Source: Promethearchaeota archaeon | Lineage (GTDB): Archaea > Asgardarchaeota > Hermodarchaeia > Hermodarchaeales > Hermodarchaeaceae | Assembly: GCA_048939245.1 (NCBI GenBank) | Contig: JBHLPR010000066.1 | Location: forward strand, 1 to 12,567 | Length of the DNA: 12,567 nt | Direction of reading: 5' to 3' | Part shown: piece by piece, positions 2,695 to 6,388 of the stretch | Numbering within the stretch: position 1 is the stretch's first letter | Layout of the letters: the number at the start of each line of letters is the position of its first letter | Program-made: the position numbers and the translations under genes | The notes under the pieces: generated by a model | What the model was told of the DNA's origin: nothing | The model's database searches: none | What the model saw: only the letters and a program-made list of their open reading frames with translations

Positions 2695-4215
2695 CTAATT
2701 TTCTACTGCTTTGATATAAGCTGCTAATTTAGCGATCTTGACTAATTTTTCTTTTCCACTTTTCATATCACGTACATTTACGGACTTCTTTGCCAGTTCT
2801 CGGGGTCCGATAATTGCAGCATATGGGATCTGTCGTTTACTGGCATCATCAAGATGTTTGGTAAGCGACCATGAAAACCCGTTGAATATCGTGCGTATCC
2901 CTGCTGCTCGAAGTTTTGAGGCGATTTCTCGGCAAATGCTGAGTTGTTTCTTTGATACGGGCGCGAGATAGATGTCTGCTGGTGGCTCCGGTGGTGGGAA
3001 AAGTCCAATCTCCTCTGCGAGTTCTAAAATGACGGTTTCTCCGAACCCAAATCCTGTTCCAGGTAGCGGCTGCCCGCCAAAGATCCCGACGAGGTCATCA
3101 TAGCGACCGCCACCTGCAATTGCACGGGGTAATTCACTTCGACGATCCCAGGCCTCAAAGATAATGCCCGTATAATAGTCGAGTCCACGGGCAATTCCTG
3201 CGTCAAATTCACATACGTCTGTGATTCCCAAATCATCCAGTTGTTTTGCTAGTTGGCTTAGGGGGTTAAGGGCTTGTTGTGTTGCTTCCGCTAATTGAAA
3301 CTCATTCATAGCTTGAAGGAATTCTATTGGTGGTCCCCGGATTGCAGAGAAATCTGTGAGTTTTTCCGCTGCATCTTGGGTTAAGCCAATGTTTATGAGC
3401 GCATTGATTAGCGCTTGGCGTTGGAGTTGAGGAAGTTGCCTTATCACTTCATTCAGTCTTGTTGACCGAGGAAGTTTCGGTTTTTCTTTTTGTTTTCCAA
3501 TATAGAAATGACGGAGCTTGAGCGCAATTTCTTCAGCTTTTCTAGCTGGGATTCCCGTCTTTGTAAGTTGATCAATTATTGTCTCTTGTAGAAGTTTTTC
3601 GCGGCGATCTAGCACACGGATTATTTCAATATAATTTGATAAGCCTAACTCATCGATGAAACTCTGGATTAGTCGGCGGTCATTAATACGAATAACAAAG
3701 TCCTTTGGTGCGAAGTCCAAGTCTAAGATGATGGCTGCTAGTATATTGATCACTTCAGCATCTGCTGCCACATCTTCAGTGCCCAATATGTCGACATTCA
3801 ATTGCCAAAATTCTTTGACGCGTCCTCGTTGTTGGGTTTCATCGCGAAATACTCGAGAAATTGAAAACCACCGTATGGGGCGTGGATAATATTGCTGTTG
3901 GACTGCTAACATACGGGCTAGGGATGGAGTTGTTTCTGGGCGTAAGACCAGTCGTCGCTCCTTGCGGTCAGTGACTTTGAAAGTTTCTTCAACAAGTGAC
4001 GGTCCCGATTTTAACTCATACAGTTCTATAGGTTCCACTGTGGGACATTCGTATTCTATGTAACCAAACAGTTTCGGGATTTCACGAAATGCCCTAAGTA
4101 TTCTTTCAATTTTCTGATAGAGTTCTGGATAAAAATCCCGAAAGCCACCCAACGCTAGTTCTTTGCTACGTTTCATTTTCAACAGCTCATATTCGTATTT
4201 CTCACTATTATCCAT
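2695..4215 (-). CDS. hisS: Histidine--tRNA ligase
   Basis: GFRDFYP, LRPETTPSLAR, motif 2 FRDETQQRGRVKEFWQ, HisA loop RGLDYYTG, GGGRYDDL, motif 3 GFGFG, C-terminal anticodon-binding domain. The start may be Met14 (4176). Confidence 0.97.
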   Translation of the reverse strand: MDNSEKYEYELLKMKRSKELALGGFRDFYPELYQKIERILRAFREIPKLFGYIEYECPTVEPIELYELKSGPSLVEETFKVTDRKERRLVLRPETTPSLARMLAVQQQYYPRPIRWFSISRVFRDETQQRGRVKEFWQLNVDILGTEDVAADAEVINILAAIILDLDFAPKDFVIRINDRRLIQSFIDELGLSNYIEIIRVLDRREKLLQETIIDQLTKTGIPARKAEEIALKLRHFYIGKQKEKPKLPRSTRLNEVIRQLPQLQRQALINALINIGLTQDAAEKLTDFSAIRGPPIEFLQAMNEFQLAEATQQALNPLSQLAKQLDDLGITDVCEFDAGIARGLDYYTGIIFEAWDRRSELPRAIAGGGRYDDLVGIFGGQPLPGTGFGFGETVILELAEEIGLFPPPEPPADIYLAPVSKKQLSICREIASKLRAAGIRTIFNGFSWSLTKHLDDASKRQIPYAAIIGPRELAKKSVNVRDMKSGKEKLVKIAKLAAYIKAVEN

Positions 4216-4268
4216 ATTGATAGTGAAAAATGGTGCCGGGACAGGGATTCGAACCCCGACCTAAAGCT

Positions 4269-4297
4269 TTCTGCATCCCATCTTTGAGAATGGGATT
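4269..4297 (-). other. tRNA intron 3, canonical 37/38, 29 nt
   Basis: Strict BHB: central helix CUGU/GCAG, bulges GG^A and AA^A, intron stem AUCCCAU/AUGGGAU. Confidence 0.93.
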
Positions 4298-4318
4298 CCA
4301 CAGGCTTCAATGCTACCA

Positions 4319-4340
4319 TTGCGCCTGGGTAAATACCAGT
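4319..4340 (-). other. tRNA intron 2, D-loop 15/16, 22 nt
   Basis: Central helix GUGU/GCGC, bulges AA^A and AA^U, intron stem CUGG/CCAG. Removal restores the D-loop AAUGGUA. Confidence 0.85.
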
Positions 4341-4347
4341 TTACACC

Positions 4348-4377
4348 TTCGGGAGCTGGTAACTAGCTACCAGCCTA
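4348..4377 (-). other. tRNA intron 1, position 8/9, 30 nt
   Basis: Central helix CGGG/CCCG, bulges AU^U and AA^G, intron stem GCUGGUAG/UUACCAGC, outer helix GUGC/GUGU. Removal gives U8-G9-G10. Confidence 0.85.
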
Positions 4378-4379
4378 AT

Positions 4380-4400
4380 CCCGGCACGGTGCCCGGCACG
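4380..4400 (-). repeat. 9-bp direct repeat CGTGCCGGG duplicating the tRNA 5' end into its leader
   Basis: Copies at 4400-4392 and 4388-4380 on the minus strand. Confidence 0.85.
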
Positions 4401-4424: not shown

Positions 4425-4440
4425 CAAAAAAACCTTTCCT
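4425..4440 (-). promoter_or_regulatory. Putative BRE/TATA-like promoter of tRNA-His
   Basis: AGGAAAGG-TTTTTTTG lies about 25-30 nt upstream of 4400. The same GAAAGGTTTTT motif precedes the M50 gene at 11218. Confidence 0.5.
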
Positions 4441-4971: not shown

Positions 4972-5187
4972 TTATCGTGCTGAGAGCTTCTTAATGATTT
5001 GAGGGCGTTCTTTATACATTATTCGTGCTCCACAGAATGGGCATTTGCTGGAAGGTAAGGTTGTGGCAAACGGCTTTCCGCAGTGGGGGCATCGATTGCT
5101 GGGTGGCATTGATGGGACGGGTGTTTGGCAATAGGGGCATGATAGGGTTTTTCCACATTTAGCGCATCGAAATGTAATCCTGAACAC
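4972..5187 (-). CDS. rpo12: RNA polymerase subunit Rpo12 (P) with an additional inserted zinc ribbon
   Basis: N-terminal FRCAKCGK and C-terminal KCPFCGARIMYKERPQIIKKLSAR match the RpoP/RPB12 pattern (CPxCGxRILxKxR). Two extra CxxC motifs lie in between. Confidence 0.88.
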   Translation of the reverse strand: MFRITFRCAKCGKTLSCPYCQTPVPSMPPSNRCPHCGKPFATTLPSSKCPFCGARIMYKERPQIIKKLSAR

Positions 5188-5295: not shown

Positions 5296-5402
5296 GGCAA
5301 TATGAATGGAAGGCTGAGTAATATAATGCTTACAAATACGCTACCGATGATCAGAATGAGCAAAATTATTGCAATAATTAGATTTTGTTGTTTTTTCCTC
5401 AT
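5292..5402 (-). CDS. Unannotated 36-aa single-TM microprotein MRKKQQNLIIAIILLILIIGSVFVSIILLSLPFILP
   Basis: ATG overlaps the Get3 stop (TAATG). Basic N-terminus followed by one long hydrophobic helix. Fills the intergenic gap and is too short for the ORF track. Confidence 0.8.
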   Translation of the reverse strand: MRKKQQNLIIAIILLILIIGSVFVSIILLSLPFILP

Positions 5403-6388
5403 TATTTTTCACCATTTTCGGGAAGTACTCCAGTTCCTAATAGGTTTGAGAGTCGCTTCAATGATGGAATTCCTCGGATTTCTTCTTTGAATAAGGGAAT
5501 CTCGGTGATCATAAAATCGTCGTAGATGTCATGAATTTGTGTAAGGTATTGGAGTTGCATTGTCTTCCGAGCCTTACAGAAACTACAATCAGGTATGTCT
5601 GGAAAGATCATGTTTACGATGATATGACTACTGGGAATCTGATATTCATAAAGCGTTTGTAGAAGGCGTTCGGTCTCAGAAACTGCCATCGCTTCAGGGA
5701 TCATAATGATTACAAAGCTGGTTCTGGTGGGATCAGTGAGTTCTACTCTCGCCTCATTTATAGCGAGTTTCAATTTCTCGAGTTTTTCCAATGAATCGTC
5801 TTCTTCCTTCGAATTTCCTCGTCCAAAAAATGATTTCAATCGCCCGAACATGTTACTGAATCGTATTCGGAATTTGATGAGTTTTCCGAAGAAACTGTCA
5901 AGCATTTCTGGAAGACCTAAAAGGCGCAAGGTATGGCCAGTAGGAGCTGTATCAAAAATGACTAAATCGTAGTCGCATTCATGAATGAACTCTAAGACCT
6001 TGGAGAATGCTAAGGCTTCGTCAGATCCGGGTGCTGTCATATCCGCCAGATCTTCAACCCCCATCATATTCCCCATCGGGCCCATATCGCTTGTTTCCGG
6101 TTGTTGCGCCATCTCCTTATACTGCGCATAGGCTTTTTGTGGGTTGATTTCCATCCCAAAGAGGTTCTTCACTCCTTCAATTGGGACGACTTCGCCACCA
6201 CTGATATCTTGAGCAAAACAATCTCCCAGACTGTGCGCGGGGTCTGTACTTATTACAATGGTTTCTCGACCATGATCTGCTGCCCAAAGGGCTGATGCAG
6301 CTGCACTACTTGTTTTCCCTACTCCACCCTTTCCACCAAAGAGGAGAAATCGAAGCGTTTTCTTATCAAGCAAATCCACAAGCGTCAT
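5402..6388 (-). CDS. arsA: Get3/TRC40-like ArsA-family ATPase (single domain)
   Basis: Deviant P-loop GKGGVGKTS, switch I STDPAHSL, PGSDEA, switch II DTAPTGHT, Met-rich helical region, TRC40-insert-like amphipathic helix, CSFC dimer zinc motif, A-loop EEIRG. SD GGAG. Confidence 0.93.
   Translation of the reverse strand: MTLVDLLDKKTLRFLLFGGKGGVGKTSSAAASALWAADHGRETIVISTDPAHSLGDCFAQDISGGEVVPIEGVKNLFGMEINPQKAYAQYKEMAQQPETSDMGPMGNMMGVEDLADMTAPGSDEALAFSKVLEFIHECDYDLVIFDTAPTGHTLRLLGLPEMLDSFFGKLIKFRIRFSNMFGRLKSFFGRGNSKEEDDSLEKLEKLKLAINEARVELTDPTRTSFVIIMIPEAMAVSETERLLQTLYEYQIPSSHIIVNMIFPDIPDCSFCKARKTMQLQYLTQIHDIYDDFMITEIPLFKEEIRGIPSLKRLSNLLGTGVLPENGEK

Follow-up and report, generated by a model that had tools for sequence, protein, structure and literature searches.

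The tRNA-His gene and its surroundings

The window, the whole 12,567-nucleotide stretch of DNA that was analyzed, contains on its minus strand (4385-4231) a tRNA-His(GUG) gene of a Hermodarchaeia (Asgard) archaeon that is interrupted by three introns. Upstream of the gene, on the same strand, are a BRE/TATA-like promoter element (4425-4440), which is conserved in all orthologues and whose distance to the tRNA was calibrated against other Asgard genes; a leader copy of the acceptor 5' strand (4392-4399; G-2' U-1' G1'-G6'), which is a proposed decoy; and a spacer (4386-4391) made up of CACC, which can pair with G9-G12 of exon 2, plus G-2 and U-1. The gene itself comprises exon 1 (G1-U8; 4378-4385), intron 1 at position 8/9 (30 nt; 4348-4377), exon 2 (G9-A15; 4341-4347), intron 2 at 15/16 (22 nt; 4319-4340), exon 3 with the anticodon GUG (U16-G37; 4298-4318), the canonical 37/38 intron 3 (29 nt; 4269-4297), and exon 4 (4231-4268), which encodes the T-arm, the acceptor 3' strand (4241-4235), A73 (4234), and the CCA. 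The position of intron 2 was assigned to the sequence from BHB geometry. Intron 1 is cleanly absent in three relatives, and intron 3 is absent in three relatives. A normal 74-nt tRNA-His(GUG) with A73 and the encoded CCA results when the four exons are joined. All exons are colinear behind a single promoter-like element. A split (trans-spliced) tRNA was ruled out, as the pieces are not in separate transcription units, and so was a permuted tRNA, as the upstream element repeats the 5' strand and the T-arm and CCA lie downstream.

The gene for histidine-tRNA ligase (hisS; 2695-4215, minus strand; TIGR00442 above the cut-off) is directly downstream and served as the synteny marker for finding tRNA-His orthologues. 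GTDB records place the same tRNA-His gene in Hermodarchaeota and other Asgard MAGs. ARAGORN and Rfam reported nothing in the window and missed the gene entirely, and a relaxed, genome-wide ARAGORN run produced noise; tRNA genes were therefore located by T-arm/acceptor pairing. Further upstream on the minus strand are an RNA polymerase subunit P-like open reading frame with an extra Cys-rich N-terminal part and several CxxC motifs (4972-5187; below the NCBIfam cut-offs) and a single-domain ATPase of the GET3/TRC40/ArsA family (5402-6388).

All tRNA-His orthologues in the window's family (f1) have A73 (4234 in the window) and U or A at position -1 (4386 in the window). Thg1 was not found in the 19 family genomes searched (72-91% complete). 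The window HisRS is 38-44% identical over nearly its full length to the HisRS of families f4 and f13; its matches to other Asgard HisRS are fragmentary. Taken together, these sequence features suggest that His identity in f1 is independent of G-1. One f4 His-like gene (L575) also ends in A73.

The 8/9 intron and the processing enzymes

The 8/9 intron is, by its sequence and predicted pairing, a non-canonical BHB intron as that class has been defined in print. In the window, the central helix pairs C3-G6 with CCCG (4353-4350), the bulges are AU^U and AA^G, and the outer helix (C2-G10, G1.U11) is weak. The BHB uses C3-G6 and is therefore mutually exclusive with the acceptor stem; the initial annotation had recognized the same central helix and the same conflict. 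The 4-bp central helix (exon n-5 to n-2 against intron -6 to -3) is CGGG/CCCG in 11 of the 14 His sequences; L012 has one wobble pair, and in L014 the register is shifted or three of four pairs form. Two 3-nt bulges with at least one flanking 2-bp helix are present, and the inner helix is imperfect beside the bulge in several orthologues. Removal of intron 1 restores a canonical tRNA that matches the intron-less relatives, three of which have U8 and G9 joined in the gene. Intron 2 needs G10-U13 for its central helix, which puts it in competition with the outer helix of intron 1.

Genes for RNase P RNA, for two EndA subunits (PF01974), and for RtcB are present in the genome. By inspection, one EndA gene has the catalytic His and the other apparently lacks it. 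The apparent catalytic subunit (L461:1474-2034, minus strand) has a Lys-Pro-containing insertion that, judged by eye rather than by alignment, is like the crenarchaeal-specific loop, which has been linked to a broad substrate range (PMC12397907).

A copy of the acceptor strand in the leader

The sequence GTGCCGGG occurs at 4399-4392 and again, with a period of 12, at 4387-4380. The 8-mer at 4399-4392 reproduces tRNA positions -2 to 6 and is fully complementary to the acceptor 3' strand CCCGGCAC (4240-4233), so that eight Watson-Crick pairs join G-2' to G6' with C67-C74. The upstream second copy proposed by the initial annotation is thus confirmed over its full 8 bp. Position 7' is unpaired in the window because the copy has lost one G: 7' is C in the window and T in L010 and L092, and in most relatives a G7'.U66 or A7'-U66 pair is present. 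C-to-U editing at copy position 8' was considered and rejected, as 8' is C, A, or T without pattern. An assembly artefact was ruled out, since an independent study yielded a contig that covers the stretch continuously, and the copy is also present in 12 relatives.

Across 13 orthologues, in genomes whose HisRS are 66-82% identical, the copy is 0.94 identical, compared with 0.30 for the DNA upstream of the promoter and 0.43 for the interior of intron 1, and it is therefore not a chance repeat. The second copy, which is exon 1, is invariant, and the first varies by C3' to U wobble and at 7'. Identity is 0.78 over the 13 nt that precede the copy, so promoter constraint near the start could explain part of the conservation of the copy. 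The first T of the TATA run is 35 nt before G1' of the copy and 47 nt before the true G1. Among 205 Asgard tRNA genes of the ordinary kind in which such an element is clearly recognizable, the median distance from TATA to G1 is 40 nt (interquartile range 35-47). G1' of the copy falls within this usual range, and, with the start position judged from promoter distance, the copy probably lies inside the transcript.

Occurrence among orthologues and other tRNA genes

The copy is present in all 13 f1 tRNA-His genes with an 8/9 intron, and three tRNA-His genes of a sister genus have neither the intron nor the copy (3/3). The orthologue comparison called for by the initial annotation thus came out in favor of co-occurrence, with no intron-bearing orthologue that lacked the copy. 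A metagenome scan with a short pattern, whose matches were mostly random, contributed four more complete His loci, each of which has both the intron and the copy. In the three intron-less relatives, exon 1 is at the promoter distance held by the first copy in the others, which suggests that the old exon 1 was kept in place. The copy thus seems to occupy the ancestral exon-1 position, with a second exon 1 and the intron downstream.

The pairing recurs in five further gene lineages in four Asgard families, namely Leu-UAA, Thr-GGU, a second His, iMet, and Phe. The tRNA-Leu(UAA) gene of the window's own genome is interrupted at 8/9 and preceded, at a distance of about 40 nt, by a 7-nt copy, as in 14/14 f1 genomes. 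In family f7, the tRNA-Thr(GGU) genes of 5/5 genomes have an 8/9 intron together with a copy at -12/-13, one of these copies being degenerate (5 bp). The Thr(CGU) gene, whose acceptor strand is identical and which has no early intron, lacks the copy in 5/5 genomes. The tRNA-His of family f8 combines an 8/9 intron with a copy; the identity base, G-1, lies just ahead of the second copy, which marks the second copy as the exon. Family f18 (Freyarchaeia-like, a name assigned here) has a 10/11 intron and a copy in iMet (6/6 genomes) and a 9/10 intron and a copy in Phe (5/5 genomes).

In a survey of 374 tRNA genes, the copy was detected in 35 of the 35 genes interrupted at 8/9 or 10/11 (34 full and one degenerate) and in one of the remaining 339, compared with about 3.8 expected from shuffles. 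Survey genes were found by T-arm pairing and the counts were curated by hand; the survey covered genes with an uninterrupted T-arm and uninterrupted positions 1-7, and the Phe genes were counted separately. Five genuine early introns that the automatic classifier overlooked, and one call that it made in error, were corrected by hand. The useful count is 6/6 gene lineages, as relatives are not independent, and it does not imply six separate gains. Introns at 13/14 or later had no upstream copy, and a search for counter-examples with two generic 8/9 patterns in 131 genomes returned only the f7 Thr genes, none of which spoke against the association. Two tRNA-Cys genes that were also retrieved lack both an early intron and a copy. 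Changes at copy positions 1'-6' keep pairing (C3' to U wobble), with single-G losses and the degenerate Thr copy as the exceptions. Among the genes compared, therefore, the leader copy co-occurs with introns that borrow acceptor bases and not otherwise.

Several individual loci deserve mention. The sole survey exception is the leader of the tRNA-Tyr gene L041, which has an exact 7-nt copy at -46 and no early intron; this copy is directly behind the preceding tRNA-Leu, is only partly present in relatives, and is probably due to chance. In the leader of the f8 tRNA-His (L383; G025:C78), the copy of the acceptor 5' strand is present twice in tandem, at -20 and -13. A further tRNA-Leu(UAA), whose 5' end is degenerate (L048; G006:C36 near 2760), is 4.6 kb from the intact gene and is possibly an integration remnant; it is no counter-example because the intact gene has the copy. 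Both introns of the f18 iMet genes (L244-L249) begin with similar sequence, a hint of local duplication as a route of intron gain. Intron 2 of these genes (15/16) needs G10 and G11 adjacent, so the 10/11 intron must be removed first.

Folding of the precursor and of the spliced RNA

When the leader is included in the folding models, the copy of His, Leu, Thr, and iMet is predicted to pair with the 3' strand at a probability of 0.96-1.0, and the modelled probability of the native stem is about 0, compared with mostly 0.8-1.0 without the leader. The fold with and without the leader, which the initial annotation had proposed as a check, agreed with its expectation: the predicted probability of the central helix in the window is 0.96 with the leader, 0.05 without it, and 0.03 when the copy is mutated. 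The modelled helix needs a 5' end at or before 4397, falls when the 5' end lies beyond that position, and is stable from 15 to 55 C. Mutation of the copy, and not of the spacer, abolishes the predicted central helix in most His orthologues. The helix fails to form in the model in L009, L011, three Thr genes, and one iMet gene. For Leu, a relaxed helix measure replaced the strict-register probabilities, which were low through G-run slippage, and Thr L377 was excluded from the folding-probability and orthologue folding results.

The spacer may contribute as a guide to an extent that differs between genes. Modelled duplexes between the spacer and the D-arm (D-loop) reach -12 to -18 kcal/mol in Leu and Phe, and the Leu guide shows a compensatory change between two genera. 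In most Leu orthologues the BHB is predicted to form even with the copy mutated, as the guide suffices. The His spacer is a weak guide, a 3-5 bp complement of G9-G12 that is kept by wobble changes in relatives; its predicted pairing energy is -3 to -5 kcal/mol in His and about 0 in the f8 His. The tRNA-Leu(UAA) leader (G000:C59:13621-13770, plus strand; L038-L052, L576) looks like a decayed 5' half of a tRNA and can form a fold of its own that hides part of the decoy; it is the strongest case for a switch.

When the nascent window transcript is modelled without its 3' strand, the central helix forms at 0.86-0.95 and no leader is needed. Together with the roughly 5% of central helix predicted without the leader, this suggests that the copy may raise the efficiency of splicing rather than be essential for it.

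After splicing, the decoy state is still favored by nearest-neighbour energies in all four genes modelled, by 2.1 kcal/mol in the window and by 0.5-7.8 kcal/mol across orthologues. On splicing, the modelled advantage of the decoy falls from 10.0 to 3.5 kcal/mol in Leu, from 3.8 to 1.7 in Thr, and from 7.8 to 4.5 in iMet, and it is hardly altered in His (4.7 to 4.0). The initial annotation had held that the true acceptor stem forms once splicing is complete, which these energies do not bear out; the return to the native stem would need tertiary folding of the tRNA, the irreversible RNase P cut, or both. In bacteria, pairing of the leader with the 3' RCCA (73/74) slows RNase P (PMC9433436). The -1' and -2' bases of the copy pair with 73/74 in His and iMet, and, by analogy, this pairing may make the decoy state hard for RNase P to cleave.

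Proposed role of the leader and alternative explanations

The leader is probably a cis-acting helper for removal of an intron whose BHB borrows acceptor bases, with the copy as decoy, the spacer as guide, and the true exon 1 engaged in the BHB. Before splicing, the copy would pair with the 3' acceptor strand as far as A73/C74, the spacer either with the beginning of exon 2 or with the D-loop, and exon 1 with the intron end to form the BHB, as modelled. EndA would then cut and RtcB would join U8 to G9. In the spliced RNA, exon 1 would compete back for the 3' strand, aided by the tertiary folding of the tRNA, and the RNase P cut at the true G1 would remove the leader and drain the equilibrium. 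The decoy arrangement would also stop RNase P from taking the leader off ahead of splicing. The idea of a surrogate acceptor strand that frees exon 1 gained support from the comparison of six gene lineages and is favored by folding; the copy may not be strictly required. The earlier decoy picture was also incomplete, as it missed both the spacer as a guide for exon 2 and the ancestral exon-1 position of the copy. As to origin, the old exon 1 would have been kept beside the promoter as a decoy, the duplicated exon 1 having arrived with or before the intron, and introns that borrow acceptor bases would persist only where such a duplicate exists. Opinion on a stronger version is evenly balanced: that a two-part leader of decoy and D-arm guide evolved repeatedly in Asgard archaea, is required for 8/9-10/11 introns, and forces splicing before RNase P, with prior duplication of the 5' end as the precondition for intron gain in a zone that is otherwise closed to introns.

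It is unlikely, although some of the same evidence could be read in this way, that the copy is a functionless by-product of intron arrival by 5'-end duplication, with splicing occurring co-transcriptionally before the 3' strand exists. Perfect co-occurrence is equally expected if a single event makes both intron and copy, and the ancestral position of the copy, the resemblance of the Leu leader to a decayed 5' half, and the central helix predicted in the nascent transcript are all compatible with such an event. A by-product would not be expected to be conserved so far above the region upstream of the promoter and intron 1 in genomes that have diverged as these have, nor to change mostly in ways that preserve pairing, alongside a guide that compensates; the lack of an upstream copy where introns are at 13/14 or later also argues against it.

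Still less probable is that the leader acts mainly as a guide extending the BHB outer helix, or as an RNase P timer, with the copy protecting the 3' end and CCA. The strong guide duplexes in Leu and Phe, the predicted survival of the BHB in most Leu orthologues with a mutated copy, and the pairing of -1'/-2' with 73/74 in His and iMet, comparable to that which slows bacterial RNase P (PMC9433436), would each fit, but spacer pairing is weak in His and absent in the f8 His, and in most His orthologues it is the copy rather than the spacer whose mutation abolishes the modelled helix. This reading overlaps the cis-acting helper and does not exclude it.

It is very improbable that the real exon 1 is the first copy, with the spacer plus second copy as an extra 7/8 intron that has a palindromic C2-G5 helix: the ancestral position, the G-2 U-1 that is invariant there and variable before the second copy, and the decoy state favored after splicing in the model are outweighed by the 7:66 mismatch in the window, L010, and L092, U3.G70 in three others, the general lack of U8 in the first copy and invariance of the second, a required helix that on inspection is impossible in Leu, Thr, and iMet, and the f8 His G-1 that sits on the second copy.

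If the leader is such a cis-acting helper, it would explain how tRNA introns whose splicing signal conflicts with the most stable helix persist, and why they are rare. It would also give tRNA 5' leaders a further functional role, that of a disposable RNA chaperone in cis, and provide a short, testable example of RNA sequence alone setting the order of processing. The leader copy is a practical signature for finding such tRNA genes and annotating them correctly.

Comparison with known systems

Intron-rich Asgard tRNA sets have already been published (PMC11291895; bioRxiv 10.64898/2026.10.13.758758), and in Thermoproteales tRNAs introns occur at positions as early as 3/4 (PMC4090602). The Asgard census puts introns of the acceptor and those of the junctions together under a few 'other' cases, aligns only the gene body, and treats the route by which Asgard tRNA introns arrive as an open question (bioRxiv 10.64898/2026.10.13.758758). 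Our data bear on that question, since signs of local duplication are seen in all of the cases. In the openly accessible literature searched, no account of an acceptor-strand copy in a tRNA leader was found, and none is given in PMC4090602, PMC11291895, or bioRxiv 10.64898/2026.10.13.758758; the word 'leader' occurs 0 times in the two Asgard papers (the latter two).

Split and permuted tRNAs are known from Nanoarchaeum equitans, Caldivirga, Thermofilum pendens, and Cyanidioschyzon (PMC4090602, PMC3218864). The window gene is like them in that a disposable flank pairs towards building the BHB and in its unusually long distance from promoter to tRNA. In split and permuted tRNAs, however, the leader or trailer lies within the BHB and is removed by EndA, whereas the window gene is colinear and its copy lies outside the BHB, where it would titrate the competing strand. 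Bacterial leader-RCCA pairing is similar in that leader bases -1 and -2 extend the acceptor helix onto 73/74 (PMC9433436). The bacterial case is a 2-bp effect, whereas in the Asgard case a whole strand of 6-9 bp is duplicated and linked to an intron.

Attenuators and T-box elements are leader strand-exchange RNA switches in which two mutually exclusive helices share one strand. The Asgard leader likewise has mutually exclusive helices with a common strand. Unlike these switches, it involves no ligand or ribosome; the trigger would be splicing and the output the order of processing.

Among the closest known relatives are the non-canonical archaeal BHB introns, with which the window gene shares the 4-bp central helix, two 3-nt bulges, several introns per gene, and a motif that is partly exon. 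To these introns as published, the window gene adds the leader copy of the acceptor strand. At the level of sequence comparison, this copy is a real, conserved, and recurrent leader element that is tied to acceptor-borrowing tRNA introns and built on known BHB splicing.
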